A DNA stretch of 63,434 nt, filler included, from Folioceros fuciformis (taxonomy: Eukaryota): assembly GCA_049999805.1 (NCBI GenBank). It is 22 parts of 22 records of this genome, joined end to end, with 100 filler letters (N's around TTAATTAATTAA, not from the genome) between each part and the next. Parts side by side here need not be neighbours in the genome. Positions count along the whole stretch, not along the records: positions 10,896 to 12,174 come from JBNGIO010000651.1; 21 more parts are not named here. The stretch is one strand, 5' to 3'. This document shows positions 1,793 through 49,885 of this stretch, in pieces (position 1 is the first letter of the stretch; each line of letters starts with the position of its first letter). A program made the position numbers and the translations under genes. The notes beneath the pieces are model-generated. The model did no database searches and was not told the origin of the DNA. It was given only the letters and a program-made list of their open reading frames with translations.

Positions 1793-2849
1793 AGATCCTT
1801 GTGGTGGTAGGGCCAGAAGCTCATTGGTGGCAGGTTGTGCTAGAAGTCTAAATAAGTGGCTGGTGACAGCCGGATAGGCTATTAAAATAATATTTCTCAA
1901 GTTAGAGAGAGGTGAAGTCAGAGAGAGAGAGAGGCTCCTATAAGATCAGGTGAGCCTGTAAGAAGAAGGAGTCATTCACTTTTGGGAGTCACTCTATCTC
2001 TTTGTGAGCTCTTGGAGGTCCTCTCTTCATAAGCTCTTGTGGTCTGTCCCTGCTTGGTCTAGGACCTGCAGTGTGTTGCCGGCTGTGCAACGTCTGGTAG
2101 GATCGCAAGCCGTGTGTTGCCGGCTGTACAGTGTCTGGTAGGATCGCAGGCAGCGTGTTGCCGGCTGTACAGTGTCTGGTAGGATCGCGGGCAGCGTGTT
2201 GCCGGTTGTATAGTGTCTGGTAGGATCACAAGGTGTAATGACCAGGGTGAAGGGGCTTGCCCCTAGCTCTTGATTGTAAAGGGTGTGTCTTTCTCTCGAC
2301 CTGTCCACTCTTGTTCCTTGCTTGGTCAAGTGCTGTAGGCCGGCCATGTCTCATGGCGTCTGGTAAGGTTGTGGGGAGGAGATACCCAAGAGGGGAGTGT
2401 GTTCCCTTCTTCCTTTTGTTTGGGGTTAGTCTAGTGACTCTTGCCGGGTAGGAGGAGTCCGTAGGGAAGTATACAAGGTAGTGGTGTCCTTGCTGGTTGC
2501 TAGTAGTTGCTGGTGTTGGTGCTGGAGCGAGAGAGTGAGTGAAGTGAGTGAAGGAAGACGTAGATCTGAGAGGTTAGAGTCGTTGTAGTAACAAGAGTGA
2601 GTTTGTGGGCACCGAGAGAGGTGCAGCTGACCGCCAGACAGCGAGGCCTGTCCTACGCCTGATCGGAGCTGGAGGGGAGCCCTCGAATCCATCATCGAGT
2701 TGATCAAGTCCGACCCTCCATCCACAGCAGCAAGGAACCCCATCGCTCCTTCGTGGGAACGAAACCCAATGTCTCAACGACAGTGGGATAAGTGTGGCCA
2801 CTAAAGGTGGAACCCATTGGCAATCAGTGCCCGGGGTTTTGCCTCCACA
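1793..2849 (+). mobile_element. LTR family A (Athila-like), 3' part, inserted into a Ty3 RT
   Basis: Near-identical to reverse-strand copies at 20363, 27229 and 34556 and to a diverged copy at 43804 that abuts a tRNA-Asp PBS. Ends ...GCCTCCACA, has CCTATAAG (TATA-like) near 1937, and about four 40-42 bp tandem units at 2072-2230. Confidence 0.85.
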
Positions 2850-5500
2850 TACCAGATACGGGTTAAGGAAGGGGATGAGCACAAGACAGCATTCAAAACC
2901 CGCCATGGCCACTATGAGTGGGTGGTGATGCCCAGGGGGCTCACCAACGCACCAACAACCTTCCAGTGCCTGATGCAGGACATCCTCCGGCCGTTGTTGG
3001 GGCAGGGCGTAGAAGTGTTCCTCGACGACATCCTAATCCGTTCTGTAGATGTAGAGACCCACATAAACCTGGTTAGAGCTGTTCTATTACTCCTACAAAA
3101 GCACCACATGTTAGCCAAGAGGAGCAAGTGCACCTTCATGTGCAAGGAAGTGGACTACCTAGGACACATCGTCACGAGGGATGGCATCAGGATGGACCCC
3201 CGCAAGGTCCAGGCAGTCACAGCATGGCCATTACCCACAGACATCACCCAGCTCAGAGGGTTCCTGGGACTTGCAGGATTCTACGGCCAGTTTATCCAGG
3301 GGTTCAGTAAGATTGCTTTACCCCTGACCGACGCCTTGAAACAGCCCCCCAGCAAATCTTTCAATTTGGATGCAGCAGCACAACTAGCCTTCACCCAATT
3401 GAAACAGGCTCTGAGCTCAAGGCCGGTTTTGGAGGTGGCAGATCCCAAGGGGATCTATCATGTGCACACAGATGCACCAGATCTCGCCCTTGGGGCTGTT
3501 CCGTCCCAGGAGGGACGGGCGATTGCCTACGAGTCCCACAAGCTCCAGGGAGCACAAGTTAATTACCCAATTCATGACAAAGAAATGCTTGGCATCATCC
3601 ATGCACTCAAGGTTTGGAGACATTACCTACTAGGACAGAGGTTCACAATGCACACGGATCACCATTCCCTCCATCACTTCTTCACCCAACCCAACTTGAA
3701 TGCACAACAGCGGAGGTGGTCAGAATACTCAGCTGATTTTAACTTTGAGATTAAGTACATCACTAGAGCCTCTAACTTGGTAGCAAATGCCCTCAGCAGG
3801 CAAGCTCTCACTCTGATGACCTCTCAACTAGATACCATCAGGCTCGTCCGAACAGCCATCCCAGGAGATCCACACTTGCAACACATCAACCAGCAGTTAG
3901 TACAAGACACAGCAGAAGGCATTCCCACAGCTTTCATGCAGACTTACCAACTCAAAGACGCTTGTGTTTACAAGAAGGGTCAACTAGTGATTCCTCAACA
4001 GCTGAAGGAGACCCAGAGAGGGATCCTGCATGATCTACACGACTCTCCCATCTATGGACACCTAGGTATCGACAAAACCTATGATCGGGTGAAAACCCAT
4101 TTCCACTGGGAGGGCCTGCGAAATGATTGCATATAGTGGGTCAGAAGTTGCACCTCCTGTCAACAGACAAAACCAGAGCATCAGAAAACACTAGGGTTGT
4201 TGTTACCTTTACAAGTACCTGACGGAAGATTCCAGTCCACCTCCATGGACTTTGTGACTACCCTTCCCCGCACTCGTACAGGAAAGGACAGCATATGGGT
4301 GGTTATGGACAGAATGTCTAAGTGCTGCCATTTCATTCCAGTAAATTCCAACGTTACAGCTCCACGAGTGGCCAACATATTCACAAAGGAGATCTTTAGG
4401 CTTCACGGGTGCCCCCAGAATATTGTCTTAGACCGGGACCCCAAGTTTATAGCAGGGTTCTGGCGATCCTTCACCGAAACCCTGGGCATCCAATAGAGCT
4501 TGTCCTCCACATGCCACCTCGAGTCAGATGGTCAGACAGAGCATCAAATCCAAGTGCTTGAAGACATGCTGCGGCATTACACACAAGACAAGCAAGGCAA
4601 GTGGGAGGAACTCTTACCCCTCCTCAAGTTTGCCTACAATAGCTCCAAGCACGCTGCCACAGGAGTATCCCCCTTCAAATTGCTATATGGCGAGAATCCA
4701 CCACCACCCGGACTCTGGCCAGCTAGCGAAGCCAAGTGGAGAAGTGCAGCCGAGGTTGCAGAGGTCATATGGCATGAGGTCCACAAGGCCAAGCAGAATC
4801 TCCTGTCAGCTCAAGACCGGGCCAAGAAATCGAGCAACAAGCACAGGCGGGAAATCTCCTACAGCATCGGACAACTGGTGTGGTTGTGAATCCACCCTCA
4901 CAGGTATCCATCACTTCTCCAGCAAAAACACAAGTTGGCGTATCGATTTGCAGGACCCTTCAAGATCTTGTGCAAGGTCAATGAAGTTGCCTACACACTA
5001 GAGCTAGAGCTGCCTACCGAACGGCGCATGTGTCACACCTTCCATGTGAGTATGATGAAGGTAGTGATCTAGAGACCTGCCCAACTCAACCCGCCGCCAC
5101 CTGCAGACCCCGCCACTCAAGACAGTCTGGAAGCCCTAGCCGCCACAGACAGTCTTGCTACTCCACCAGCGCAGGACGTCTCTCCAAGCTCTCCCACGAC
5201 AACCAACCCGACCACTAGACCCCCGGTATCAGTTACACCCCCTCACCTAGAAAGCACGACACGGAAGCGGAACAGATCAGCCCGCCATCCCTAGCTCGAC
5301 GACCTTGTCCAGCCCGACAGAATCCTGGAGGTACGCACCTGTCACCTCAGAAACCGATCTGTCCGTGATTACCTAGTTGGATGGAGCCAGGAACCAGACT
5401 CTTCTGCCACTTGGGAGCCAGAAGATGTCTGCAGACGAATTCCCCACCTTAGCCAGCAGCTGGAGGCCCTGGAGGACCAGGCCTCTTGCAGTGGGGGAGA
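2850..5500 (+). mobile_element. Ty3/gypsy chromovirus pol (RT-RNaseH-integrase-chromodomain), decayed
   Basis: KTAFKTRHGHYEWVVMP, VFLDDILI, RNase H HTDA..AYESHKL, integrase HDSPIYGH..C..C, SMDFVT, DRDPKF, DGQTE, GPF motif, then chromodomain-like PDRILEVR..YLVGW..ATWEPE (about 5310-5425). Contains in-frame stops. PPT GTGGGGGAGAA precedes TGTTAC at 5502. Confidence 0.93.
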
Positions 5501-10895: not shown

Positions 10896-12174
10896 TCCTC
10901 CAAGTGTTCCAAATGTGACTCAAAGTCCACACTGTGCACAAGGACGTCATCTATGTTGCACAATAGGTTGACTGACCCAGCCAAAACTATGTTCATAACC
11001 CTCTGGAAGGTGACTGGAGCATTCTTGAAGCCAAACAACATCACGAGCCACTCCCACAGTTGCTGTGATCCGTAAAAGGCTGTCTTTTTTATGTCCTCCG
11101 GTGCCACTGGCACTTGGTTGAACCCTTGCCTTAGATCCAGTATGGAGAAGTAGACAGATCTGCTGATGTTGTCAAAGATCTCCTCCGGTGTAGGCATAGG
11201 GTACCTGTCCTAGGGTGTCATGGTGCTGATAGGGCGATAATCGCCACACATTCTCTTCTCCGTCCATAAGCCATGGCTATCCTTCTTGGGTGGCATGATA
11301 GTCGCAGCAACGTAATCAAAACTGGAAGGTCTGATTAGCCCTACCTCACATAATTCCTTGCACCTCGCATCCACCATCTCCCACTCAGATTGACTCAGCC
11401 AATACCTTCTACAATATATGGGCTCCGGGCTTGTGAGGTTAATCCTAAAGATTGTGACGTTGCAGCGTTTCAACTCCTTCATGGAGAACGCGAAGCAATC
11501 ACTGTACTTGAGAATCAATGCCCGAATCTGCCTCTGTTGTTCATCAGTGAGCTGTGGTCCCATGTGCCAGTTGAACGTTTCAGCAATGAGTGGCACCTTG
11601 GTTGATGGCTCTTGCCTCACATCCACCTTGAAGGTCGATGCAGAAAAAACAGAGTGGTGCCAAGCAGCATACTCCCCCCCTCTTGCATCGAGCCTGAAAG
11701 GTAGGCAAGGATAGCCAAGGAAAGGTAGGTGCACTGCATCTGCTGGACAAGCCATGGCTACAAGGCCTGCAAGGGTGCCTCTGGTTAGCAGTTGGAAAGC
11801 CAAGCATAAACTCGCAAGCTAAGTGATGGCGTGCAAGTCCATAGCTCGACCGATAGCAACACAGCGCTGAGAGACTGTAACCTGCAGTGCTGCCGTGGCA
11901 TGTGCTGGAAAGCCCATGATCTGCTCACGCTCCTCAACGTGGGGCTCTTCCCATTCCTTTGTGGTGGTGTTGTATAGCAATCCGTGATAGGCAAAGGAGC
12001 CAGGAAAGCTCACCAGGGCAGGCAATGTTTTGCGAGGCTGACTAGGTGTGTTGATTGGATGCTAGGGTGGTCGCTCACTAACAACCACAGGCCTGGGTTC
12101 ATGATCTGCATCCAACACATCTTGCAGCTGCAAGGTGGGATCCCGCTTCGTATTGCGAAGCACGAGTGCCAAGA
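10896..12174 (-). mobile_element. Ty3 pol fragment: C-terminal half of a C5 DNA methyltransferase in frame with RT
   Basis: One frame (ORFs starting 12025, 11803, 11197) broken only by stops: ..EEPHVEEREQIMGFP..QRCVAIGRAMD (motifs IX/X-like), linker, then RT KKD..WTEKRMCGDYRP..DRYPMPTPEEIFD..LDLRQGFNQ..KTAF..FGFKNAP..NIDDVLV. Confidence 0.85.
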
Positions 12175-12274: not shown

Positions 12275-12600
12275 GTGGGAATGTTCCCTCCGTAGGTAGG
12301 GTACCTATTGCTCCCTTCGTAGGTAGGGTCCCTACCATTCCTTCCCCTCCTCTCGTAGGTAGGTTGCCTACCCCTCCTCTAGTAGGTAGGTTCCCTACCC
12401 CTCCTCTCGTAGGTAGGTTGCCTACCATTCCCACCCATTGTCGTAGATAGACAACCTACCCCATTGCTATAGGTGGGGTGTCTACTGTATAAGTACCTTC
12501 CCTACCTACATAGGTATCTTCCATTTTCCCACGTAGGTACTCTCTCTACGTATGTAGGTAGACATCCTACTATGTAGGTATCTTCTTATTCTAACCTACC
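12275..12600. repeat. Degenerate tandem repeat of about 27-36 bp built from CCTACC / GTAGGTAGG
   Basis: Units such as CCTACCCCTCCTCTCGTAGGTAGGTTG; lies 3' of the diverged ORF-X copy. Confidence 0.75.
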
Positions 12601-12649: not shown

Positions 12650-13749
12650 ACCTACCATGGGCACTTGCCCAGAAACTTACCTTCCACATGCCTCCCTTCG
12701 AACTATTCTGAACAAGAAGAAACCAAGTTAGACTTTCCTAGACCGATTACCAAACTTTTCCTTTCCACACCTTGTCCCTCCTATTTCCACATGCATATGG
12801 ATAGTCAGGTTAAGCACACGGTCCCCATTCACATAGAAGCCGAGAACATGAGTTTCCTCATCCAGATGCTGTAATACAATCTGGCCTCCTGCTGCAGATG
12901 AGGTACTTACCCCCTCCTCCGGTGGGCTACCTCGAACTGCCCGTCTTCTGCTCTCCAGGGGTACTGGGGAATCTTCTACCCCTCCGCCCGCCGCTGTTGT
13001 CAGTCCTGTCCTCCTAGCACGAGTCGCCATCTCCGCTCTTCCGGTTGCGGGCTCCATGATCGTCGTTGCTTCCTCTACCCAGTAGGGCTGTCCTCTATTG
13101 GCATGGGTTCCATCTGACCGGTAGCAGCTTCGGCTACCTCAATCACAGATCGGTTGTTCCGTCTAGCCTTCCCTTTCCCTTTTACCCGGCTTCGGGCCTC
13201 ATCCTATTCCTGTTTATATCGGTCTGCCAGCTTATGGACCTTCTCCACTGCAGCCGCCTCCTGCTCATGTGCCCTCAACAATTCCTGTTGCATTTCCTGG
13301 TTAGCCTCATGGACTGCCTTGACCTGGGTCAGAAGTAGCTCTTGCTAATCCTTCATGGCCTGTATTTCTTCCCAAGCCCGGCGTATTTCCTCCTACGCCT
13401 ATTCCTTCGCTTCACACAAGGCTTGCTGAGCTTCCTCCAGTTGCCTCTGCCTCGCTTCTGCTTTCGTCAGCTTGGCCTGCACCTCCTCCTCTTTCTTCCC
13501 TTGCATGCTCAGCCAAGTCACCGCCCGTGCAGCTTGGTCCAGCATGTCTGCCTGTGCCCAGACCATGGCCGCTGTCAGGCTTGGTAAATCCACCTATTGG
13601 GGTGTGTCTCTAGTAGCCATTCCTCTATCCAAGATTCCCCTTCCCAGCAGTGTGCGCACCCTAGCCAGATCCTCCTCCTGCAATCTCGCCACCAAGGGAG
13701 TGGCCCTGAAAAGCTCCTCCCACCCCGGGAAGTGTTCTTCCCCTGGGGT
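12650..13749 (-). mobile_element. Diverged copy of the retrotransposon accessory ORF-X (C-terminal half), decayed
   Basis: DLPSLTAAMVWAQADMLDQAARAVTWLSMQ and GSPPEEGVSTS..GQIVLQ..VLGFYVNGDRVLNL..GGTR align with the copies at 25421-27228, 38281-40844, 47754-49885 and 50689-52262. Confidence 0.8.
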
Positions 13750-13849: not shown

Positions 13850-14620
13850 CACACCATCCCCTCCTAGCCTGAAGGCATAAGATTGCGGTGTGCTCATTAG
13901 AGTTGGCCATGCCCTTCTGGCTTCTCCTACTCAATTCACAAGATAAAATGGCAACTTGTCCATCCGCTTCACCTGTTGTGAGCACCTGTCCAACTCAAGG
14001 ATGTCGTCCACGACCTTCTCCTACGAAATCATCAAATTCCTATGTTGCCTAAGCACCTCTAATCTAGCCACATTTGTCCAATAACTGCGAAGCTTGTGTG
14101 CATATGAGCCACACTACACTGCGTTCATGATTAACTCGTTGCCGAACCATGACCGAATCTCCTCATACAGAGACCTGACAGCTGGACGTTTGTCCATGGC
14201 TGCACACACATTCACCAAAATGTACCAGCATCGTGGATTCGCAATCTCGACTTCTCGCACAATTTGTGCAAGCTCAGCAGCCAACAAAATGCCTTCACCT
14301 TTGTCTTTGCTTGTTGTCGAAAATGTCTTGCATTCCCATCCTAGGACCAATATATCCACCGGACTCAACAAGGCTTCTAGCTGCTGCTTGCCCACCAGGT
14401 TCATGTCTGTGGGCAGCCTGCTATGGCAACCTCAAACTACTTCCTCGCTCAACAGCATTGGGTACTGCTTACAAGACCTAAGAATTTGGCTGCTAGCCAC
14501 AGCCCGAGCCTTCTCGTCCTTCTCCACGTAGGTACATTTGCGTACCTTGACGCCACACTACAACACCGCTTCCAGGCCACTACCGATTCCTAAGTAGAGC
14601 TCCAACAGATGGATGCCTTC
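13850..14620 (-). mobile_element. C5 cytosine methyltransferase domain (motifs I-VIII plus variable region) inside a Ty3 polyprotein, decayed
   Basis: Single frame with stops: GIHLLELYLGIGSGLEAVL (I), YVEKD (II), VDILVLGWECKTFS (IV), WYILVNV (VI, ENV with one substitution), NAV*CGSYAHKLRSYWTN (VIII). Same frame as the upstream protease. Confidence 0.85.
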
Positions 14621-17162
14621 AGCACCCACCTTCCATCATACTAGAGCATCATTGATGCGTTGATCTTCTGCCTTGGCAGGCCTCACATTTGGGATCAACC
14701 TCTCAAGACATGTGTCTATAAGATTCCACAGTCAATTCTCCTTCCTTCCCTGGTTTTTTCGAACCCTAGCTTCATCCAAATACTCTGAACGCACAACCTT
14801 CAGCACACACTTCTGCTCTCTTGGCTTCAGCATGTCCAGAGAGGATAACTCTTGCGTTTCCTCCCACACCTCATGTTGATGCTCACTCTGAGCATTGTGG
14901 GCAATCACGGCGCTACCTGTCATTCTTATCCTGCTCTTCCCACCACTCCTGTTCATCCTTAGGGGAATTCATGCAACATGCGTGAAATCTCCTCTCCACC
15001 AGAAGGGTCTGTAGAAGGCTTCTGCGTGCAAGGGATCAACTCCCATAGCAGGACAATGAGTTCCAGCCGACCCTAGCAAGACATCATATGTCTTTGCACT
15101 GGTGACCAAACATCTCACTTTAACAATGCTGGCGTCCTTCGTGCCAGGCTTCAACTCAATCTTCACGGGCTTCCTCGTCATTCCCAGCACCTGTTCCTTG
15201 GTGCTTGTAGAGGTGGTGATGTTCACATCGCTCAGAACGAGCTTGTGCGCTTCAGTGCTTCCTGCCCTCGTGCTCCCTATATCTACTAGGACGTTTACTG
15301 GAGCATAACCATCAAAGTTATGTGCCTCCTAGTGTTATCAATGATGGCAACACCTCCTTCACCTCGCTCCTCTAGCATTAGGTGATCTCCACACAACTTG
15401 GCCATGCGAGGAACAGATCCTACGGATTCAAGCTCCTTCCTCAACCATTCTCACATGATGTTCTTGAAGTTGTTGCCCTTCACACCCGGATCCATGATAC
15501 TTACTGTAGGCACCTCCATGGCCTTGTCCAGCAACACCTCAATGTCTCGACCTGGTCTTGACACCTTCTGTGTTGTGGAGTCCTCTTCGGCCTGGCAGAA
15601 ACTCTCCGGCATCTTGGTCAATTCCCGCTCTAGCACTTCCTTCGTAGTGACGCCTTCACGAAAGTCCACAACAACCTTTTTCTTCTTCTTTTGCACTACC
15701 ATCATGCCAAATGCCCCATCTTCATCAGAGTCAGAGAACAAAATTTTTTTGCCCTGCATTCGGGTGATGAGGAGCACTCCCCGAGCAAAGTCCAGAGGGC
15801 TAGACTCAGGGCCGGTCTTTTTCTCTCCCGAGTGCGGTACACATGCTTTGTAAGTACGTAGGCAGGGGTCCCCTTAGTATTGTAAGAGACCATCACTATT
15901 AATCAGAATCCTTTTCTTCACGAAAAAAATAAAATAAAAAATTTGCCCTGTCCTGCTGGCCATGTTGGCCATCTCCTTCTTGAGCTACTCCACCTGCTCG
16001 AGAAGAGCCTTGCGACTTGGGCGCTTGCTCTTCTCCTTCTCAGCAGATGCAAGCTTGGGCTTCAGCTCTGGGTGAGCTTCCCAACACGCTGCCTCCATGT
16101 GACCCCATCCGCCACAAGACTTATAAGCTTCCTTGCTCTTCGGACTACCTGGCTTGTAGTCGCACTCAAACACCTTGTGCACTCCACGGCATTTGCCACA
16201 CTTCACAGCTGCTTGGCCTGCATTATTAGCTGGCCTCTCCTTCGGCACATGTGGCTGCTTGCCATGTCCTGAGGACTGTGCCTACTCTCGATACTGGTGT
16301 CTTGGGACAAACCTAGAATTCCCGTGTCCTCCAGACCCGTGGTGCAAAGGGGTCTTCACGACTCCGTGATCCTCCAAGTAAGCCTGGCTTACTGCATCAC
16401 CTTTGAGCATCTTCTCAACAATCTGGTAAGCTTCTATCAACTAGTACTTCTCTCCCATCACTCCATGTAGCGAGTCCATCACCTTCCTTCTCTCTGCCTA
16501 GCAGGCAATGCTCCCTTGAAGATCTCGGTGGCCTCCCTCATTGTCTTGACACCCGTGTCTTCTACCGGAACCTTCAATATGAGGTAAGACGCATGCGATG
16601 TCTGGTTAGGCTGAAAGAAAAGCTCGATAGTTCTTGGACCTTTTCCAGCGAAGCTATAGGAAACATGATGGTTAGCTTGGTGAACATCAAGTCCATTAGA
16701 TGCTTGAGCTTTTCTTCGTCAGTGGGGGTGTTCTCAAACCAGCCTTCTTGGCTGCCTCGTGCACTGCCTTTCTTCTCTCGGCCACCTTTAGGATCTCAGC
16801 CTTCTCATCTCTGTAATACATCAAAGCCTCATCATCATGAATGCCATCCTCTGAGTGAACTCATCCTTGTATTTCATCTTGCTTTCTGTCATTGCCCAAC
16901 GGAACTTCTCCTCGAAATCTGCAAGAGATATGCTTCCATGTTTTCCTATGAAGACATCGTTCTTACTTGGTGTGAACTCAAGCTCCATTTTTGTGGACTC
17001 TCTGCTCCAATCCCTGAATTGTCTCCTTGTGACTTGTGCGTCGTCTCTGTGTTGTTCCGGTGTCCTCTTGAATGGTGAGTAGTAGACGTCGTGCACTTCT
17101 GCGACTGAGGACGGTGCAGGTGTCCTCTCGTTAGTCCACCTTGACCTCAGGAATACCATCAA
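14621..17162 (-). mobile_element. gag (two zinc knuckles), aspartic protease and linker of the DNMT-bearing Ty3 element
   Basis: CGKCRGVHKVFEC and (C>Y)KSCGGWGHMEAAC near 16085-16200. Protease VLVDIGS (DTG with ACA>ATA) near 15280 and YDVLLG near 15080. Confidence 0.75.
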
Positions 17163-22199: not shown

Positions 22200-22370
22200 C
22201 TTATGGTACGAGAGAATGGATTCTTATCTCAAGAAGTTGGGGTTCATCCAAGGTGAAGCAAATACTAACATCTATGTACTTCGTTAGGATAGCTCACTTG
22301 TACTTGTTGCCCTATATGTCGATGACTTAGTCATTCCAGGCAATAATGTTGATTTGGTCAACAAGATAAA
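22200..22370 (+). mobile_element. Ty1/copia RT fragment
   Basis: WYERMDSYLKKLGF..IYV..ALYVDDLVI. Confidence 0.8.
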
Positions 22371-23232
22371 ATGGTGCACACACATAAGAGAGCTCTGAGA
22401 AAATATTGCTTGGTAATTGATAAAATGAGTGGGATAGAATGTTACCTTTCCTTACAATGGTTTATAGGATGAGTAGACAAGTGTCTTTGGGGAAAGTTTT
22501 CACCTTACATGTTATTGTTTGGATGAAGGCCACATTTGTCTAGGATGGCAGCAAACAAGGTGGACACTGTTGTGAAGTTGGATGACCCCAATCAATGGTT
22601 AAAGATAATCAGGCATAGAGCAGAGTTGTTTAAGAGGGTTATGCCTATGGCGATGGATAACTTGTTGATAGCTCAACATAGGGATGAGTTGAGATATAGG
22701 AAAACAAGGAGTGGTCATTTCAAACCTAAAATGAAATTTGAAATAGGGGATTATGTGTACTTGCAGAGAAAGACGTTGACAACTATTGACACAAGTGCTA
22801 GTTGGATAATATTGAGGGTGAGGAGTGTGAAGCCAAATGGAGTCTTGGAGCTTGAAGGGAGGGATGGTACAACTTGTTTGGAACACATGAAAAACTGTGC
22901 ACTGTGTCATTTGCCTCACTTGAACCGGGCGATTAATGTTCAAGCTTTCATACCAAGGGATTTGCTTATACGGGATGTGGAGATCCGAGTAGTAATCAAT
23001 GCATGTTGTTATGTGATAGATGCAATGATGGATGGCACATCCTCTATTTGGAACCGCCATTAGAGGCGATGCTTGATGGACAGTGGTTTTGTCCAATGTG
23101 TGTGACAATTGATACATTGTAAGAAGAACATTATATTTTGATTGAGGTAGATTGAGGATGATGTGTGTAATACATTTTATGAGCATTTTTGTTTTGCCAA
23201 CAAAAGTTGGGCAGTAAATTAAGGGGGGGAGG
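22371..23232 (+). mobile_element. Ty3 integrase C-terminus with a PHD finger, followed by a PPT
   Basis: KRALRKYCL, FSPY.LLFG, NLLIAQHRDELRY..FEIGDYVYL..LRV..GVLELEGRDG..NCALCHLP. An alternative frame at 23003-23105 gives MLLCDRCNDGWHILYLEPPLEAMLDGQWFCPMC (PHD). PPT AAGGGGGGGAGG precedes TGGTGACCCT at 23233. Confidence 0.85.
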
Positions 23233-24314: not shown

Positions 24315-27228
24315 GGCGACGGTCGCCTGACGGTCTACCGCTCGTGGGTCCCACTCTCTCTCTCTCTCTCTCTCATTCCCCTCTCTCTAGGGTTTTCTCT
24401 CCCACCGGGTCGTTCCTACCCGACTGATTACCTCCTGCCCGCGCATCCCCTTTGGCACTTCCCTTCCTTGGTTCACCACAAAACTGCCTCACTCACCTCA
24501 GAAACAAGCGCACGCACACATGAACAGCAGCAATCTATTAAACGCCTTCCACCCGCATGATCTCACACCTTAGATACACCCCTGCGGTCTCAATTCAGCT
24601 TCTTCACAGCCTCTCCAGTCTCATCGCGACCAGTCACACATACACACCACGTCTCGTTGCACCCCACACACATTACCCACCTCGCCTCCGGGATTTCCCC
24701 GGCTTTGTTCTCTCTTACCCCACTCACTAGTTCGCTGTATACATTCTGCCCGTCTTAATAGTCGTCGAATCACTTCCACTCCACTTCACTCCCTGCTCCA
24801 CTCCTTCTGGCTTCCTTTTCGCATTCGCTCTTACCCACTACTCGGCCACTTGCTCCTCCCCCTTCTCACATACGCGCACTCTCACGCTCTCCTTTCTCCG
24901 GTTCTTTAGTCTTCTTTCTCAGCGATGCCCCTCCTGGGCTCCTATTAACGTTGAGGAATGGTGAGGTACCGGGGCTAAGGGAAGAGGAGTCCCTTCCACT
25001 CCGCACTCGCGGATTCGGCTCTGACACCCGCACCACCCCACGTGACCACCTCGAGGATAGTTGGGGAGCTTCTCTCCCACTCGGCAAGGCTCCTCCTCCC
25101 GATTCGTCCTCGGGCTTGATCACGGAGTGCCCACCACCTACACCCGCACCCCAGGTTGCTACATGTGCTCGCTTGCCTAGACCTCCTGTCCAGCAACGGC
25201 CATCGCTAGGTCCCTGCAAGGTCGACTGTTCGGCTGGTTCTTGCTGATTTCTTAGGCCTTCAAATCGGCCTCTTGTACACGGTGATGGCGGTTTTTTTCC
25301 GCCATAAAGTCTGTCAGGCGGGGGAGCTGCGCTCTTAAATTCTGAGCGACTTAGGTCCAAATAAAGCACGCTAAAAAATCCTATTCTAGCCTGCATTTAC
25401 TATTGCCCTTTCCCACGCCGCTAGCGGCTTCCTCCTGGCCTTCGCGTGTCACCCCTTGCTGCCCCTCCTCTCGCTCTTCTGCCCCTCCGTTGGTCCGGCA
25501 GATCCTCCCAGAGGATCTCCACATCACTGCTGCTGCTGCTGGACCTAGAAGGAGGCGCAGGTGGGTCCCGCCGCTGTGGTCCACCACTCCTCCTCCTTCT
25601 CTGGTTGTTCAGGACAGCCACAAGCCCCCGTTCTACCCAGCGCTGGACCTCCTCTTCCGTCAGTTCCTCCAGAACTGCCTCCGCATAGCAGTGGGGTAGT
25701 CCTGTCACCCACCAGCTGTAGTGGTAGAGTCCCAGGCGCGTCCTCAACTGTAGGACGTAGCCCCGCGTTCCTCCTGTTGTTATATGTACATACAGAAACA
25801 GCTTCAGAACTCTGGCCCCTTCTACATACAGGCCTGGCACATAGGACGCCTCCTCCTCATACTGCAGCACAATCCGACCTTCTGTCATAACAGAGGTGCT
25901 TACCCCGTCCTCCCTTGGGCTACCTTGGGTTGCCTGCTCCCCCTCCTGCTGGGGTACCTGAAGGTTCTATGCCTGCCCAGCTGTTGCCTCCTCCGGCTCT
26001 ATCCTCCTGGTACGGGTCACCCTCCTGGAGCGCCTAGGGGCAGGCGCCCCTACTGCTTCCTCCTTTGTTTCCAGGGTTGGTTCTTCAGCTATCCAGGGCC
26101 TTGCTGGGCCACCAGTAGCCCCGTTGGCTACCCGACTATCGATAGTCCCGTGGACTACCGGACTACCGGTAGTCCCCTCGACTACCGTTCCTCTAGTTCG
26201 GCTACCGGTAACCCCTTCTGCTACCGGGGTCGCTGACTGACTCGGACGCCCAGCCTTGCTCTTCCCCTTCACTCTCTCTTTGGCCTCATCCCGCTCCCGC
26301 TTGTATCTGTCAGCCAACTTCTGAGCCTGCTCCACAGCGGCTATCTCCATCTCCTGTGCCCTTGCCATTTCCTGTTTCATCTCCAAGTTAGTCTCGTGAT
26401 CCTCCCTCACCTGAGCTAGGAGGGTCCCCTGTTGCCAGCACTTCAGCCCTCGCCTTGCGCGCCTCTTCCTCGGCTTGAGCCTTCTCCCTGTCCAGGACCC
26501 GCTGCTTCTCCTCCAGCAGTTGCCGCGCCATCTCCGACTCCGCTAGTTGCCTCCTTGCTTCAGCCTCTCGCTCACGAGCCTTCTCCTCCTTTCCCCAAGC
26601 CTCGGCCTCTCGCTCCGCTTGTACACTTAACCAGGTCAGGGCCCTAGCAGCCTGATCCAGGAGGATTGCTTGGGCCTGCACCATCGCAGCAATCAGCCCA
26701 GGTAGGTCCACTTCCTGCACCTCTCTAGTGTCCATTCCTCTCGCCGTGATTTGTCTGCCCAGGAATTCTCGCAACTTGTCCAGGTCCCCCACCTGCAACC
26801 TGTCTCTCTAAGGCCTGCACCTGAAAATGTCCTTCCACCTTGAGGAACCCTCATGTGCTGAAACGTGCCCTAACTTATCCTCCTGTCTGGAGGAAACTGT
26901 GTCGGCTGCCATCACCTGATCCGGTGGCTCCTCAGGTCTTGTCCCACCCTGACCTTGCTCCTCCAACCTTCGATCCTTGATTCCCTGGATAGCTAGTTCT
27001 CGTTCTGCCTCCTGCTGACCTATCTGCTCCAGGGTTGTCCCCCCTTCCTCCTGATCAGCCCCCATGCTCACACTTTGTCCTCTAGTCCTCTTCCTCCTGG
27101 CAGGAGTCTTCTTTTGTCGCACCATCCTCTTCATGGGCTTGACTGGGGTTTCCTCCTGCGAGCTATTCCCACTGTCAGCTTCCCAACTGCTAGAGGCAGC
27201 CCTTGCTGGCTCAGCGGGCTTCCACTTC
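24315..27228 (-). mobile_element. Athila-like element 3' region: ORF-X (25421-27228) and 3' UTR
   Basis: Coiled-coil, repeat and C-terminal domain match the other copies; interrupted at 27229 by LTR-A. Confidence 0.8.
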
Positions 27229-35472: not shown

Positions 35473-36298
35473 CTGAGCTTGACCTCGAGCTCCACCAAAT
35501 GGACGTGAAGACTGCTTTCTTTACGGCAATCTAGACGAGGAGGTCTACATGAATCTGCCTAAAGGCTATGTCAGCAAGCAACACCCATGCAAAGTCCTAA
35601 GGCTGAGAAAGTGTATCTATGGCCTTAAGCAAAGTGGCTGTGTTTGGTACACCACCATGCACGCCTACCTCCTGAGTGTCTCTTTCACCCAGAGCACAAC
35701 CGACGGCAACGTATACAAGTTGTCTCAAGGCCCCCATTTTGTGATCCTTGCTCTCTATGTTGACGACCTTACTCTTGCAGCAAACAACTCCGAAATGCTA
35801 GCAGAGGTCAAGCAACTCCCGAGCGCTCACTTCAAAATGAAGGACATAGGTGAACTCCAATTTTGCCTTGGCATACAAATCCTTTGGAACATGACAGAAG
35901 GAAGATTGGTCATCCACCAGCTGAAGTACATCAACGAGATACTACAAAAGTTCAAGTTGGATCAAGCCAGGTCGGTATCCACTCCCTATGCCGTGGGCAC
36001 TAAGCTCACAGCCAACCAGTGCCCACAGACAGAGGAGGAAGCCAAAGAAATGCAAGGGATCCCCTACCGTCATGCCATAGGTAGCCTCCTCTTTGTCAGT
36101 GGATGGACAAGGCCAGACATCCAATACTCTATCTCCATGGTATCCCAATTCCTAGAGTCGCCAGGCAAGGCACACTAGGCTGCCGTCAAGAGGGTGTTCC
36201 GCTACTTGAAGGAAACCCTAACATATGGGCTTATATACCAAAGTGGAGGAACAGGCAAGCTCTCACTCACTAGTTATACGAATGCCGATTGGGCATAT
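35473..36298 (+). mobile_element. Ty1/copia RT, decayed
   Basis: HQMDVKTAF, IYGLKQS, LYVDDL, FKMKDIG, TRPDI. Confidence 0.93.
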
Positions 36299-37954
36299 TG
36301 TAAACATAAGAGTATTCTAGGAAGAATATTATGCACAAAAGATGTTTAATTATGATCAACAAAAGTGTTTATATACAGGACTCTCGAAGAGTCATGACCT
36401 TTGGCAATAGCTCAAACCTAAAGTATATATTCATAACCTAGCAGCTGCTATGTTTAAGTAAAGCTAACCCTAACGGGGTTACTTCCAAACACGCCCCCGT
36501 AAACACAGCAGACTATTAGCTGCGAGCGTCGAACCACGAGCAATGGCGGGAGCACTATCACAATGCCTTAGTCTCTGCGCCTTCGTCATAGTTGTGTTCC
36601 TGCTGTACCAGCATCGCTGCGAGGATGCCAGGAAGCAGAGAAAAAGGGCGCAAGGCAGAGCTGAGCTGGCACACCGCCATGCCTGGAAAGAATTCGCGAC
36701 GGATCAGCGTTGGCAGATCGCGAGCTTGGAGTGTCGGCTGCTAGTCTTCTTTGCAGTGAAGAAGCTGGATAGCAGTTGGAAAATCTTGTGTGCTGTAGGA
36801 TGCGACTGAATTTGAAGGAAAAGTTTCATCCACCATGCCTGCAGTTGAGGTAACCAGAAGAACTAGGTTTGAGTACAGGCCTTGATGCCCAAAGCCTCCA
36901 TATGTATCAGGTGCTTGTGACCAGGCACGTACTTGGTGAGCAGATCAGCTTCGTTCAGATCTGTAGTCACATGCTGAATTCGCACTTCTTTCTGCTCCAC
37001 AGAGTGTCTAATAAAATGGTGATGCACCTCAATGTGCTTAGTGCGGGCATGAAATTGCGGATTAATTGTCATGGCAATTGTCGACATATTGTCACAATAA
37101 ATGGGCGCTGGCTGGAACTGCGGAAACCCAAGATCATTCAGAAAGGAACACTCCCAGATAGCTTCCTTGGAGGCTTCCGTCAAGGCCTTATACTCTGCCT
37201 CGATAGAGGAGAGTGCCACGGAAACCTGCTTCTTGGAACTCCAATGAATTGTAGCACCAGAAAGGGTAAAGCAATATGCGGATATGCTTCGTCGTGCATC
37301 CGGATCTATGGCCCAGTCGGCATCAGCCCATCCAGAAACGGTAAGCTTGTCATTTGCTTGCCCCCGAAAGCATAGCCCATGATGCAGAGCACCCTTCAGA
37401 TACCAAAGAATACGTTTAACCGCGCCCCAATGTTCCATGCCGGGGTTATCCAGAAACTGAGAAACAGCACTCACCGAAAATTGAATGTCAAGGCGAGTCT
37501 AGCAACTGATATAGTTGAGGCACCCAACAGCATGACGGTAAGGAATACTGGCCATAGCCTCTTTCTCAGAAACAATTTGTGGGCAATGTGCAGATGACAG
37601 CTTAGCACCAGCCCAACCAGGGGTAGAAACAGGCTTGGCAAACGCAAGATGAAAACCCTGAAGAGTCTCCATAATATACTTAGCCTGGAGTAGAACAATA
37701 GTATGGGAAGAAAGGTCTTGAACCAATTGTACGCCAAGTACAAAGGTCAGAGGCCCTATATCCTTCATGTCAAACTTTTGATGAAGCATCTGTTTAACCT
37801 AGCTCAGTAATGTAGGATCATTGGATGCTAAAATCGCATCGTCAACGTGAAGGGCAAGCACCACTTTACAGCCATCTTTGGAGTAGAGGTAAACATTTGC
37901 ATCACTCGGATTCTGCAAGAAACCAATGGACTTGAGGTAAGCATCTATGGTTTT
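36299..37954 (-). mobile_element. Ty1/copia RT-RNase H, 3' UTR, PPT and 193-bp 3' LTR (36299-36491)
   Basis: FDMKDIG, WADADWA, SSIEAEY, RTKHIEVHHHFIR; on the minus strand GGGGGCG precedes TGTTTGG...TTTACA. Confidence 0.88.
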
Positions 37955-38054: not shown

Positions 38055-41000
38055 CCAACTTGCGGTAGTGGAATGGGAATGACCAGTATAAAACCCTGGA
38101 GAAAGTCAGGGGGACTTAGGCAGTACTCGAAACAGGAGTGCCCGCGAGTTGGAGCGAGAGTAGCTGTGGAGCGCGACAACGGCCAAGAGCATAGCGGGCA
38201 CTGAGGCAACGGAGCGGAGCGGGCAGAGGACGCCGGGCGACCACAGGTGCAGGAGGCCAGCGGGGTTCGGAGCACGAGAGGTGATCAGGCAGAATGAGGT
38301 CTCTTCCAGAGCTGCTGCCTGGAGTAATGGCGACCGGGGAGGAGGAAGGACCTCCAGTCCCGAAGATCGATGTGTTCCTGTGGCCCAACATGGAGCACTG
38401 GAGGGTCAGAACCGGAGGGTTGGTCGAAGAACTAGGCCTCGGGTTCATGACCTAAAGGTGGAACCATGTAGCGCCGCTACTGATCAGGGAATGCTCCCTG
38501 AGATTGAGGGAGCCAAGAAGAAGGGATCAGAGGCAGACCCCAGGACTGGAACCTGGAGCTGGTGAGGCGGCTGTATGGCCATGACCAAGGGGAGGAGGGA
38601 GGACTCGTGCTGAAGTCCCTAAAGAAGCGTAGCAGCACAGCGGACGCCGAGGCGCTGTTCAAGCTAGGCACCAAACGGGAAGCCAACGGATGGCTGATCC
38701 ACGACTTAGCCAATCCCCAGCTGATGGGCTTGGCCAGATGGTTCCTTAGCTTCCTGCAGATTCGCAAGCAGGATTAATTGTCGAATCAAATGCTCTTGTT
38801 CGTGCAGGAGGTCGTCAAGGGGAGTAAGGTGGATTGGGGGAAAATCCTGTACGCCAAGATGGACGAGGAGAGGCAGAATTTGACCCTGCCTTCTCCTCGA
38901 CCTTCGATGATCTCCCCCTTCCTGGTACATATTTATTGCTATGCTAACCTTGTGTCTGAACTGGAGGTGCTTGCCTCGCTACACATGTGGAGGCCAATAA
39001 GGGACGTGAAGTGGAAGCCCGCCGAGCCAGAGGGAGCGACTCTAGCAGCTGGGAGTCAGCAGGCGCGAACAGCTCAGAAGAGGAGATGGCCACTAGGCAG
39101 AAGAGGAAGGCGAGGCTGGGGAAGAAGACTCCTGCCAAAAGGAGAAGAGGTAGTGGGCAGATCACCATGAGAGGAAGCGGGTCAGCGCCACAGGAGGCAG
39201 CCCCAGAGCGGAGCCCACAGGAGACAGGGACCAGCGGCTGGCTAGGAGCTAGCAGAGCAGGAACATAACGAGGAAGAGCCAGAGGCACCCCAGGAACAGG
39301 TGCCAAAAATGGAGGTGGCCCCTTCTGAGGTGATGAGCGAATTAGGGCACGTTCCGGATCAGGAAGCCTTCTCAGGATGGGAAGAGGTTTTTAGGAGAAT
39401 TCCTCAGGTGGATAGGCTACAGGTAGGGGAGCTGGAAAGGCTGCGGGCGCTGCTAGGGAGGCAGATAACTAAGAGGGGAATGGCCCCTGTGGAGTCATAG
39501 GAGGTGGATCTGCCGGGACTAACCTCAGCAATGGTGTAGGCACAAGCGGACCTACTAGACCAGGCGGCCAAGGCGCTGACCTGGCTGAGCATGCAAGCAG
39601 AGAGGGAGGCTGAGGCCCGGAGCAAGGAGGCAGAGGCGAAAGGGAAGGAGGCCAAAGCTTGGAGGCAGTTGGCGGAGTCCGAGACGGCACGGCGGCTCCT
39701 GGAAGAGAAGCAACGGGTCTTGAGTGAGGACAAGGCACAGGTGGAGGAAGAGGCGCGCTAGGCGAAGGCAGAGATACAAGTGTTGAAAGAGCAGCAGGGG
39801 ACACTCCTAGCTTAGGTGAGGGAAGCCCATGAGACTAATTTGGAAATGCAGCGGGAGATGGCTCGGGCTCAGGAGCAGGAGATGGCTGCGGTGGGACAAG
39901 TCTAGAAGCTGGCCGACAGGTACAAGCGGGAGCAGGATGAGGCCAGGGAGCAAGTGAAGGGGAAGGGCAAGGCTGGGTGAAGTAGTCGAACGGCAATGCC
40001 GGTAGCCCCTTCGCCGAGCAATAGTGCCGGTAGCCAACGGGGCTACCGGTAGTCGAGTGGTCACGTTGGTAGCTGAAGGGGCTACCGATAGTCATGCGAC
40101 GCCAGAGGTAGCCGAAGGGGCTACCGGTAGAGGAAGGACAACGTCGGTAGCCGAAGCCCCGACCCCGGTAGCCGAAGAGGTGCTGGTGGAGGCGCTTGTG
40201 CCCAAGCGCTCCAGAAGAGCGACTCGTGCCAGGAGGACTGAGCAAGGGGAAGCAGCAGCTGGAGGGATGGAGGACCCTCCGGCACCCTAGGAGAGCAGGG
40301 GGAAGTAGCAGCTAGAGGGATGGAGGACCCTCCGGCACCCCAGGAGAGCAGGAGGCAGGCAGGCCGACGTAGCCCAAGGGAGGAAGGGGTAAGCACCTCC
40401 TTTATGAAAGAGGGTCGGGTTGTGCTGCAGTATGAGGAGGAAGCCACGTATGTGCCGGGCCTCTATGTGGAAGGAGCCCAAGTTCTGAAGTTGTTTTTGT
40501 ATGTATGCATGGGCACAGGAGGGACGCGGGGCTACAGCTTGCAACTGAGGACCCGGAGGGGCCTCTACTACTACCGCTGGCGGGTATGGGGACTGCCCCA
40601 CTGCTATTCTGAGGTAGTCCTGGAGGAATTGACGGAGGAGGAGGCACAGCAGTGGGTTGATCGGGAACCCGTCCTCGTCCTCAGTAATCGGCGAAGGAGG
40701 GAGGAGAGGGATTCCCTGCGACGAGACCCACTTGCGCCGCCGGCGGGCCAGCGAGGTCTAGCAATGGCAGCAGCGAGGTGGAGGTCCTTTGGGAGGACCT
40801 GCCCGACCAACGACGGGGTAGGAGGGCCAGAGGTGGGCGAGTGAGGGGAGGAGTGCGACGGCCGGGAGGAAGGCGCCAGCGGCAAGGAGAGAGGCAATAG
40901 TAATTGCAGTTTAGGCTAGTTTTTTTTAGATTGCTTTTGCTTGGACCTAAGCCGCTCAGAAATTAAGAGCGCTGACTGACCCTTGGCAGACTTTATGGCG

Positions 41001-47081: not shown

Positions 47082-49885
47082 GCTCTCCCATTTCACGCTC
47101 TTACGGTCCCGTTCCCTCTCAGTTCACACACACTTCCTTCTCTCGGCATTTCTTCTCACTCACACCCTCAGTTCCCAATCAACTCACATCATTCGGCTTC
47201 CTTTCTCCCACTCCCCTGCCCAAGGCCTTCTCCTCTTCTCTGTACTTTGGGGATGGTTAGTAAGAACACTAGGGCTAAGGGAAGGGTTTCCTGCTTCCAC
47301 TCCGGACTGGCGGATTCGGCCCTCTTCTGCTCCTACCTCCCTACACGACCGTCACAGGGATAGCTAGGAAGCCTGGCTTCCACTCGGCGAGGCTCCTCCT
47401 CTCGATTCGTCCCCGAAACTCCCGTCACGGAGCATCCACCACCTGCACACCACACCTTCAGAACACTACGTGCGCTCGCCTGCCTGGACCTCCCTGTCCA
47501 GCAGCGGCCATCACTAGGCTTTCACAAGGTTGGAATGTCGGGCTGGTTTTTGCTGAATTTTCTAAGGCCTAACTCGGCCTCTTGTACACGCTAGTGGCGA
47601 GTTCTTTCCGCCATAAAGTCTGTCAAGGGTCAGTCAGCACTCTTAATTTATGAGCGGCTTGGGTCCAAGCAAAAGCAACCTAAAATAAACTAGAATAGGA
47701 TGCATTTACTATTGCCTTTCTCCTCGCGGTTGCCTTCCTCCTAGCCGTCACGCTCAACCCCTCACTGGCCCGCCCCTGGCCCTCCTACCCCGCCGTTGGT
47801 CAGGCAGATCCTCCCAAAGGACCTCCACCTCACTACTGTTGTTGCTAGATACCATTGGCGGCGGCACAGGTGGGTCCCGTCGCATGGGACTCCTCTCCTT
47901 TGTCCATCGCCGATTGCTGAGGATGAGGACAAGCTCCCGCTCAACCCACTGCTGCGCCTCCTCATCAGTCAGCTCCACTAGGACTGCCTCGGAATAGCAA
48001 TGAGGCAGTCCCCACACCCTCCAGCGGTAGTAGTAGGACCCCCTACGGATCCTCAGTTGCAGGCTGTAGCCCCGCGTCCCTCCTAAGCCCATACGCACAT
48101 ATAAAAACACTTTCAGTACTCGGGCTCCTTCCACATAGAGGCCTGGCACATAAGAGGCCTCCTCCTCATACTGCAGCACAACCTGACCCTCTGTTGCAAA
48201 GGAAGTGCTTACCCCTTCCTCCCTTGGGCTACCTCGAGCTGCCTGCCCTTTGTTCTCCTGGGGTGCTGGAGGTTCCTCCATTCCCCCAGCTGCCGCTCCA
48301 CCCTGCTCAGTCCTTCTGGTGCGAGTCGCCCTTCCAGAACGTCGGGTCACAGGCGCCTCCACTATCCCCTCTTTGGCTACTGAGGTTGGGGCTTCCGCTA
48401 CCGAGGTTGTCTCTCCTCTACCGGTAGCCTCTTCGACTACCTCCGTTGTCGCTCGGCTACCTCGCCGGGTCTTGCCCTTCCCCTTCACCCATTCTCTGGC
48501 CTCGTACCGTTCTCGCTTGTACCTGTCAGCCAGCTTCTGAGCCTGCTCCACCGAGGTCGCTTCCTGCTCCTATGCCCTGGCTACCTCCTATTGCATCTCC
48601 AAGTTAGTTCCATGGGCTTCCCTCACCTGAGCTAGGAGCTACTCTTGCTGCTCCTTCAGCGCCTGAATCTCTACCCTTGCCTGGCGTGCCTCTTCCTCCA
48701 CTTGTGCCTGGGTTGTGCTCAGAGACTGTTGCTTCTCTTCCAGAAGCCGCCGTGCCGTCTCGGACTCCGCCACTTGCCTCCAGGGTTCGGCCTCCTTCTC
48801 TTCGCGCTCCTTGCTCCAGGCCTTAGCCTCCCTCTCCGCCTGCATACACAGCCAGGTCAGCGCTTTGGCTGCCTGGTCCAGCAAATCCGTGTGAGCCTGC
48901 ATTATCGCTGTGGTCAGTCCCGGCAAATCCACCTCTTGTGACTCCCCCACAGGGGCCATTCCCCTGTTCGTAATCTGCCTCCCCAGCAACGCTCACAACC
49001 TCTCCAAGTCCCCTGCTTGCAACGTGTCCACCAGAGGAATCCTCCTAAAAACTTCTTCCCATCCCGGGAAGGGTTTTTGTTCCAGAGCGTGCCCTAATGC
49101 GCTCATCACCTCAGGCGGGGCCACCCCCATTTCTGGCACCTGCTCCTGAGGTGCCTCTGGCTCTTCCTCGGCCTGTCCCTGTTCTGCCGACTCCTGGACA
49201 ACCTCCTGTTCTTGTTCAACCTGTTCCGAGGCTGCCTCCTGTGGTGCTGACCCACTTCCCCTCCTGGCGACCTGTCCACTAGTCCGTCTCCTTTTGGCAG
49301 GAGTCCTCTTCCCTGTCCCCGCCTTCCTCTTCTGCTTGGTGGGGGTCTCCTCTTCTGAGCTGTCCGCGCCTCTTGACTCCTAGCTGCTGGAGTCGGCTTC
49401 CTCTGGCTCTGTGGGTTTCCACTTAACCTTCCTCAACGGCCTCCACATGTGCAGAGAGGCAACTACCTCAAGTTCAGGCAGAAGGTTAGCATAGCAATAA
49501 ATGTGCACAAGAAATGGGGAAATCATCGAAGGTCGAGGAGAAGGCATGGTCAAATTCTGCCTCTCCTCCTTCATCCTCTCATACAGGATTTTTCCTCAGT
49601 CCACCTTACTGCCCTTGACGACCTCGTGCACGAATAGGACATCTGGTCGAAGAGGTAGTCCAGCTTGTGAACTTGCAGGAAGCTCAAAATCCATCTCGCC
49701 AGGCCCATCAGCTGAGGATTGGCCATGTCATGGATCAACCATCCGTTGGCCTCTCGCCCTGTGCTGGACTTGAACAGTGCCACAACAGCTGCTGCGGTGC
49801 TGCGCTTCTTCAGGGACTCCAGCACGAGTCCACCTTCTTCCTCCTGGTTGCGCCCATACACACTCCTGATCAGCTCCACGTTCTA
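47082..49885 (-). mobile_element. Athila-like element 3' region: ORF-X (47754-49885) and 3' UTR
   Basis: ELIRSVYG..EANGWLIHD..MISPFLVHIY, coiled coil, VVLQYEEEASYVPGLYVEG domain. Confidence 0.82.

Follow-up and report, generated by a model that had tools for sequence, protein, structure and literature searches.

The window analysed here is a stretch of 63,434 nucleotides from Folioceros fuciformis in which 22 short contigs are chained by N/TTAATTAATTAA spacers, and the finding concerns exactly one of them, the contig at 10896-12174 (1279 bases; hereafter contig A), which is very probably a copy, dead and hypermutated from C to T, of a multi-copy Ty3/gypsy long terminal repeat (LTR) retrotransposon whose Gag-Pol carries a Dnmt3-type DNA methyltransferase (DNMT) between protease (PR) and reverse transcriptase (RT), an element of the Gypsy-DNMT3 kind. 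Translation of the minus strand from position 12172 gave a single frame of 425 codons running the whole length of contig A. This frame is not open, since it holds three in-frame stops, all of them TAG, at residues 37, 118 and 321. An earlier note on this DNA had placed EEREQIMGFP and RCVAIGRAMD in the same frame as a Ty3 RT, and all of the strings that it quoted were indeed found in the 425-codon frame, followed by a match to the Pfam family RVT_1 (residues 295-424, E 9e-15, 55.4 bits against a cut-off of 29.6). The YxDD box of the RT reads NIDD in this copy and YIDD in the relatives with which it was aligned, and in protein searches the RT part was 61% identical to the Pol of the liverwort Calypogeia fissa and 68% identical to the database protein P0006. 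We infer a protease cleavage site in the linker that separates the DNMT piece from the RT. The next-but-one contig (13850-18556; hereafter contig B), also read on the minus strand, has a single frame that first resembles a protease and continues through DNMT motifs I, IV, VI and VIII to the contig edge; of the 517 codons that were read, starting at 15400, 12 are stops (TGA, TAG and TAA). Upstream of this protease lies what is probably the nucleocapsid part of Gag, where Pfam gave no match at E 0.01. The coordinates of the features on both contigs, together with those of a third contig carrying a PHD finger, are collected in Table 1.

Table 1. Features of contig A, contig B and the PHD-bearing contig, in positions along the window
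Feature	Position	Strand	Basis
Contig A: pseudogene piece of a Ty3/gypsy Pol frame, from the DNMT C-terminus through the linker into the N-terminal half of RT	10896..12174	-	425-codon frame with 3 TAG; 98-100% aligned to P0002, P0003 and P0005
Predicted C-terminal third of a Dnmt3-like C5 cytosine methyltransferase (end of target-recognition region, motif IX-like, motif X-like, last helix)	11789..12172	-	Homologue alignment, homologue domain model
47-residue LQDVL...SFAY stretch overlapping the end of the DNMT piece on contig B	11987..12127	-	BLASTP, shuffles
Motif IX-like EEREQIMGFP	11906..11935	-	P0005 columns E1135, R1136, E1137 and G1141 at least 90% conserved, 35 rows
Motif X-like RCVAIGRAMD	11837..11866	-	P0005 columns R1157, L1161, G1162 and D1166 at least 90% conserved
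In-frame TAG, residue 37	12062..12064	-	Sense codon in most covering contigs of other copies
In-frame TAG, residue 118, directly past motif X	11819..11821	-	Sense codon in all covering contigs of X1 and X2
In-frame TAG, residue 321, within RT	11210..11212	-	Sense codon or other variant in X1 and X2 contigs
DNMT-RT linker, poorly conserved, residues 129-199	11576..11788	-	Gappy, variable alignment columns
Ty3/gypsy RT, N-terminal half, truncated by the contig end	10898..11575	-	RVT_1 at 10901-11290
Contig B: putative protease, then the initial two thirds of another DNMT that is more decayed	13850..15316	-	Translation, homologue alignment, tblastn
Contig B motif I	14576-14599	-	
Contig B motif IV (GWECK)	14318-14344	-	
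Contig B motif VI, VNV instead of ENV	14207-14221	-	
Contig B motif VIII	14072-14101	-	
Contig B VDDIL...SYAF string	13871-14011	-	
Probable nucleocapsid portion of Gag on contig B, with Cys/His residues in knuckle-like spacing, preceding the protease	15985..16281	-	Open reading frame list, judged by eye
Integrase C-terminal piece, then after a frame change a PHD finger	22356..23101	+	tblastn to P0029, 45% identity; Pfam PHD

The contig A translation, with X written at the stops, was searched against 3910 candidates and matched 17 proteins, three of which span 98-100% of it and contain both PF00145 and PF00078, namely P0002 (47% identity, E 1e-115), P0003 (39%) and P0005 (36%). The remaining matches cover the RT part only and include the C. 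fissa Pol already mentioned and a Pol of the moss Sphagnum fallax, one such RT-only match coming from Coleochaete scutata; the RTs nearest to that of contig A were plant and algal Ty3-type Pols, and the best match of the family profile in the PDB was Ty3 Gag-Pol (E 9.7e-55). Pfam domains in the homologues follow the order zinc knuckle, aspartic protease, DNA_methylase, RVT_1, RNase H, Integrase_H2C2 and rve, with a C-terminal PHD finger in P0029, and the succession protease-DNA_methylase-RVT_1 was found in P0005, P0027 and P0029, followed by RNase H, integrase and often a PHD finger. The order PR-DNMT-RT, which had been pieced together from the two contigs, is thus borne out by database polyproteins that align with the whole of contig A and show aspartic protease, DNA_methylase and RVT_1 in this sequence. 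Contig A itself stops inside the RT, and the order PR-RT-RNase H-integrase with a DDE (rve) integrase is present in the full-length homologues P0003, P0027 and P0029. The DNMT region of P0005 alone, in a search that scored the 8000 candidates sharing most words with it, retrieved at least 79 polyproteins of 801-2552 residues, and named sources among these relatives are Marchantia polymorpha (2) and Closterium sp. NIES-53 and NIES-54 (2), together with many environmental contigs. As a separate observation, the DNMT-RT-integrase-PHD polyproteins P0048, P0056, P0061, P0071 and P0095, which belong to this family, come from the chlorophyceans Hariotina reticulata and Tetradesmus deserticola (EukProt identifiers), which fall outside the streptophytes, the group named in the accessible text of the literature on Gypsy-DNMT3; the name of the Tetradesmus record resembles a transcript-assembly identifier.

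The methyltransferase nature of the first 128 residues of contig A was examined through these homologues. In the full-length proteins the Pfam DNA_methylase match spans only the part with motifs I-VI, and motifs I, IV (Cys), VI (ENV), VIII, IX and X stand in the canonical order and not in the order rearranged in DRM enzymes; the window shows the same order, with I, IV, VI and VIII on contig B and IX/X on contig A. Searched against the PDB, a profile of 35 family members returned DNMT3A first (E 1.6e-24), then DNMT3C and DNMT3B, with plant DRM at 3.4e-12, and a 17-member profile from which the RT had been left out returned DNMT3A (1.2e-17), DNMT3C (3.4e-17), DNMT3B (1.1e-16), DRM (2.8e-7), HaeIII (5.7e-7) and HhaI (1.9e-5), so that the three DNMT3 enzymes lead DRM, HaeIII and HhaI by 5 to 12 orders of magnitude. 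In a protein atlas, the DNA_methylase clusters were unnamed or generic and came without taxa. The motif IX/X stretch of the family aligned with the C-terminal end of DNMT3A in HMMER collinearly and without gaps over 31 residues. The DNMT domain of P0005 was modelled with AlphaFold from an alignment of 25 homologues, giving a predicted local distance difference test (pLDDT) value of 90 and a predicted template modelling (pTM) score of 0.91, and a Foldseek search with this model placed DNMT3B and DNMT3A first (E 2e-20). When residues 6-336 of the model were superposed with VIA-align on DNMT3B 563-849 and DNMT3A 629-909, Z was 29.3 with a root-mean-square deviation of 2.6 A over 278 aligned residues; Z was about 29 for DNMT3A/3B, 23.6 for HhaI and 23-25 for bacterial enzymes. 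The model shows the full catalytic fold including the C-terminus, and its last third is the part homologous to contig A residues 1-128. The segment of contig A that had been assigned to DNMT motifs IX/X therefore falls in the same columns as these motifs in full-length homologues and within the fold of the homologue model, and residues 1-128 are, on this predicted structure, the C-terminal end of a Dnmt3-like catalytic domain.

Contigs A and B overlap in a 47-residue stretch of the DNMT domain, for which the earlier note had reported a gapless alignment with about a quarter of the residues identical. BLASTP between the two contigs returned 13 identities and 26 positives in 47 positions with no gaps (30.4 bits, E 1e-4), and in 100,000 shuffles of one of the strings the ungapped BLOSUM62 score of 66 was never reached while 13 identities arose once, confirming that the alignment is real. 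In multiple alignments both strings occupied the same columns of the full-length homologues. The two contigs share 13 of 45 residues in the overlap columns of the multiple alignment, as against up to 22 of 46 between contig A and database proteins and up to 27 of 46 between contig B and database proteins. Contig A pairs with P0002 (50% identity; Shimodaira-Hasegawa-like approximate likelihood ratio test (SH-aLRT) 98), to which contig B is only 33% identical. Contig B sits on a long branch (1.4), weakly supported (SH-aLRT 81-82) near P0041, P0027, P0028 and P0029, in a tree that omitted P0002 and P0003 (fewer than 60% of columns filled). The mutual identity and the separate tree positions agree with the proposal that the contigs come from different families, and on sequence comparison contigs A and B are different sub-lineages, contig B being the putative Gag, protease and first two thirds of the DNMT from a second, distantly related and more decayed member.

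The state of the copy was assessed against other copies in sequencing runs. Two DNA runs of one source sample contain contig A words, with shares of 0.58 and 0.34, and the contig pieces with at least 85% identity to contig A numbered 151 in X1, 88 in X2 and 79 in X3, these being runs of one DNA sample. In X1 the pieces were spread over identity classes from at least 99% down to below 90% (37, 54, 45 and 15 pieces, the 54 being those at 95-99%), and from the spread in X1-X3 the family is therefore multi-copy and divergent. The X1 pieces differ from contig A at 74 transition places and 13 transversion places. Among the 120 differences between contig A and other copies the 40 best supported were analysed, and at 28 of these 40 contig A has A/T where the other copies have G/C; the 28 lie in CG (9), CHG (12, all CAG or CTG) and CHH (7) contexts, where H is any base except G, against a background of 24%, 19% and 58%. 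Twenty of these A/T differences change a residue, and at 17 of the 20 the residue preferred by homologues is the one in the other copies (contig A, 2; tie, 1). At the residue 37 stop most covering contigs of other copies have a sense codon (X1 depth 120.5 of 136.6, X2 52 of 52), at residue 118 a sense codon stands in all covering contigs of X1 and X2 and the X3 contigs retain the contig A letter, and at residue 321 all covering contigs (three in X1, two in X2) show a sense codon or another variant. The residues restored at the three TAG sites in X1/X2 are also seen in homologues at the same columns. These data show that contig A is a C-to-T hypermutated pseudogene and that better-kept copies are present in the same DNA. 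A run presumed to be RNA gave a single contig, covering 11171-11205 only, which has no bearing on expression either way. We also observed that, in this small sample, the C-to-T/G-to-A changes of contig A are enriched at CG and CAG/CTG, a pattern that deamination of cytosines methylated in CG and CHG contexts would produce. In all 22 contigs of the window the CpG observed/expected ratio was 0.29-0.71 and TpG+CpA was above 1, a CpG depletion that suggests heavy genome-wide CG methylation.

Both copies in the window are pseudogenes, and it is a serious possibility, to which we give somewhat less than even weight, that the family is a fossil, with every copy in the genome dead and a DNMT that no longer matters to the plant. 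The distribution of the X1 pieces speaks against this, since 37 of the 151 are at least 99% like contig A and 54 of the 151 are 95-99% like it, and conserved residues and sense codons are kept elsewhere; these features fit younger, better-kept copies, though short contigs cannot show an intact element. It is highly improbable that contig A is an assembly chimera in which a short-read assembler joined a fragment of a host DNMT3 gene to the RT of an unrelated retrotransposon: contig A is short and comes from a repeat family, and no single run contig spans it, but three independent database proteins show the same collinear DNMT-linker-RT arrangement over nearly the whole translation, dozens of longer polyproteins share it, and the junction at 11719-11963 is tiled by overlapping X1 pieces. 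We give just as little credit to a host gene, cellular or domesticated, in which the plant would employ a DNMT3 joined to an RT-like domain; the eukaryotic Dnmt3 type of the DNMT would suit this, but there are 3 stops in contig A and 12 in contig B, the DNA sample contains dozens of diverged copies, and the relatives bear Gag, protease, RNase H and integrase. Least credible of all is an intact frame in which TAG, the only stop seen in contig A, is decoded as an amino acid, because contig B is also broken by TGA and TAA, the other copies have ordinary sense codons at the three sites, contig A departs from its family at many conserved residues, and the relatives and the transporter gene described below indicate a green plant, green plants using the standard nuclear code. 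Stop-codon reassignment and the assembly chimera were accordingly rejected, the former on the TGA/TAA codons of contig B and the sense codons elsewhere and the latter on the collinear database proteins.

Several points weigh against the identification of contig A as a copy of a DNMT-bearing Ty3/gypsy LTR retrotransposon. No LTRs, primer-binding site or integrase are present in its 1279 bases, and the label 'LTR retrotransposon' is therefore given by homology. Pfam DNA_methylase is absent from the contig A translation at E up to 1, Pfam gave no match whatever in the contig B translation at E up to 0.01, and in contig B the glutamate of motif VI is gone and motifs IV and VIII carry further substitutions. 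The motif IX/X stretch alone scored only 2.9 bits against DNMT3A in HMMER, and the structure of a homologue was predicted for that reason; the IX/X assignment of contig A thus comes from collinearity, from the homologue alignment and from the predicted structure of the homologue, and not from the damaged sequence of contig A itself. With respect to the enzymatic step, the accessible text of de Mendoza et al. 2018 (PMC5890265) reports that the domain of KnitGypsy-Dnmt3, a comparable element, had no activity in a yeast assay, a result that its authors regard as inconclusive. Finally, no synonymous excess was seen among the 40 copy differences (11 synonymous, 25 non-synonymous and 4 stop-related, where random transitions would give 35% synonymous). 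We attribute this to damage private to the contig A copy, which makes up most of the differences, and the comparison has no bearing on selection on the domain. The suggestion of long-term selection on the domain accordingly stands in part: the conservation of the motifs in 33 homologues and the published ratio of non-synonymous to synonymous substitution rates (Ka/Ks) below 0.2 (PMC5890265, accessible text) favour it, whereas the two dead copies, with no synonymous excess, did not bear it out.

The catalytic loop of the family occurs in two versions. Motif IV reads Gly-Trp-Glu-Cys-Gln, with Glu-Cys in place of Pro-Cys, in 9 of the 33 homologues (P0002, P0003, P0027, P0028, P0029, P0041, P0044, P0058 and P0059), and a Glu-Cys motif IV is also present in contig B and in all 4 closest relatives of contig A, so that contigs A and B both seem to belong to the Glu-Cys branch. 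To our knowledge, Pro-Cys is near-universal in C5 methyltransferases. The rest of the DNMT domain is still conserved in the Glu-Cys homologues, and on the trees the Glu-Cys label needs at least two changes. A PHD finger (PF00628) was detected in the window at 22356-23101 (E 1.5e-7, 31.8 bits, cut-off 24), and one is listed in 39 of the 79 DNMT-bearing relatives by manual count among the matches listed. We observed that the PHD finger sits past the integrase C-terminus, which is the chromodomain position of chromoviruses, in this contig and also in P0029, P0044 and others. In the literature no description was found of a PHD finger after the integrase in DNMT-bearing Gypsy elements, or of such elements in bryophytes, although subscription journals and the supplements of PMC5890265 may contain one.

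In line with the discussion by de Mendoza et al. 2018, the DNMT of intact members would be translated as part of Gag-Pol and then be released, or left attached beside the RT, and it might methylate the newly made complementary DNA (cDNA) of the element, or nearby DNA, de novo. Such methylation could shape the treatment of the new copy by the methylation-based silencing and chromatin readers of the host; a methylated new copy may resemble host DNA, be shielded from editing, or have its own activity damped (after the accessible text of PMC5890265). The PHD finger behind the integrase might in turn steer integration through histone-tail reading, as chromodomains do in chromoviruses. A wider reading, which we offer tentatively and regard as on the whole doubtful, is that the fragments in the window are the land-plant end of one old green-plant Ty3 lineage, spread over Chlorophyceae, Zygnematophyceae, liverworts and this plant and equipped with a DNMT writer and a PHD reader, in which the Glu-Cys branch would have a changed but selected activity, for example cDNA methylation before integration, and the better-kept copies may be active. 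Retrotransposons bearing their hosts' own silencing enzyme have been a recognised puzzle since 2018, and no new principle comes from contigs A and B. Together with the database relatives they indicate that Gypsy-DNMT3 is not confined to Klebsormidium: liverworts, desmids and chlorophycean algae have it too, as do many environmental contigs, often with a PHD finger and with two versions of the catalytic loop. Contigs and relatives provide a wider and more tractable natural set of sequences for testing the role of a transposon-borne DNMT. Worth following up are the presence of a PHD finger, the Glu-Cys version of the loop, and the spread to chlorophytes as well as bryophytes.

Other contents of the window were recorded alongside. 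A further Ty3/gypsy Pol piece at 2805-4886 (+), on a contig that starts inside the RT, contains RVT_1, RNase H and Integrase_H2C2 with a 443-codon open frame and is about 30% identical to the DNMT-bearing relatives. A Ty1/copia-type RT lies at 35483-36178 (+; RVT_2, E 9e-38), and on the opposite strand of the same contig a stretch at 36863-37498 (-) looks, on inspection by eye alone, like part of a Copia Pol. Open frames on five contigs share a conserved stretch, ...EEGVSTS...VLQYEEEA.YVPGLYVEGA.VLK.FLYV...GGTRGY.LQLR...GLPHCY..., at 12728-13138 (-), 25421-25966 (-), 40242-40844 (+), 47754-48569 (-) and 51705-52262 (+); the longest copy gave no Pfam match at E 0.01, and this protein-coding family is probably another mobile element. 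The contig that starts at 12275 begins with repeated, partly palindromic units containing GTAGGTAGG...CCTACC (12275-12600). An uninterrupted 558-codon frame at 57577-59253 (-) encodes a polyol/sugar transporter (Sugar_tr, MFS) for which proteins from Sphagnum, Marchantia, Calypogeia, Diphasiastrum and Ginkgo gave identities of 58-64%, and a further record 71%. This frame served to place the host, which on these matches is most likely a land plant; no closely related named species turned up in that search.

Retrotransposons that carry a DNMT have been described before, and the comparison here follows the accessible text of the papers cited. De Mendoza et al. (PMC5890265) described SymbioLINE-Dnmt and SymbioDIRS-Dnmt3 from Symbiodinium and KnitGypsy-Dnmt3 from Klebsormidium nitens, the last with a Dnmt3-related domain in the Gypsy Pol open reading frame and conserved key residues; its Ka/Ks is the one given above. 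A 2026 preprint (10.64898/2026.05.21.726589) treats 'streptophytes (Gypsy-DNMT3)' as known, and a 2025 paper (PMC12344493) reports DNMT3 members embedded in retrotransposons, but names Copia and DIRS. Like KnitGypsy-Dnmt3, the present elements have a Dnmt3-type DNMT within the Pol frame of a Gypsy-type streptophyte element, are intronless and multi-copy, and keep the DNMT motifs in intact members. They differ in that their host seems to be a land plant rather than a charophyte alga; and, KnitGypsy-Dnmt3 being compared by its published description without the domain-order figure, neither the Glu-Cys branch (which includes contig B) nor the PHD finger found in about half of the relatives appears in the accessible part of that description. 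Judged from sequence, contigs A and B fit the Gypsy-DNMT3 kind in every tested feature, this likeness being one of published description. No Klebsormidium sequence came up among the matches to the contig A translation or to the DNMT region of P0005.

In SymbioDIRS-Dnmt3, as here, a Dnmt3-type domain adjoins the RT in a Pol polyprotein, and the SymbioDIRS domains carried out de novo CG methylation in the yeast assay. These are, however, DIRS elements of a dinoflagellate host, with a tyrosine recombinase and with no aspartic protease or DDE integrase in the accessible account, and their capture of the domain is considered independent by the authors (PMC5890265). The EpiLTRs of Cymbomonas and Euglena resemble the present elements in being Ty3/gypsy-like and in combining a cytosine DNMT with a chromatin-reader domain, but their DNMT is sister to DNMT4 and comes together with a DAM adenine methylase and a chromodomain, and in Cymbomonas it is attached to pol at the 3' end (10.64898/2026.05.21.726589), whereas the DNMT described here is Dnmt3-like, lies between PR and RT, and has a PHD finger as its reader. 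The catalytic domains of animal DNMT3A/3B/3C (PDB 6f57, 6u91, 8tci and others) are the best match in both sequence and fold (E 1e-17 to 1e-24, Z about 29, 28-30% identity); these animal proteins are cellular enzymes with PWWP and ADD domains, while the domain of the element stands alone in its polyprotein and, in part of the family, has Glu for the Pro of Pro-Cys. With the chromoviruses the elements share a small chromatin-reader module on the integrase C-terminus, which is here a PHD finger (PF00628) and not a chromodomain; chromodomains guide integration (10.64898/2026.05.21.726589). Overall, contigs A and B add a further example to a kind of element known since 2018 and do not define a new one.

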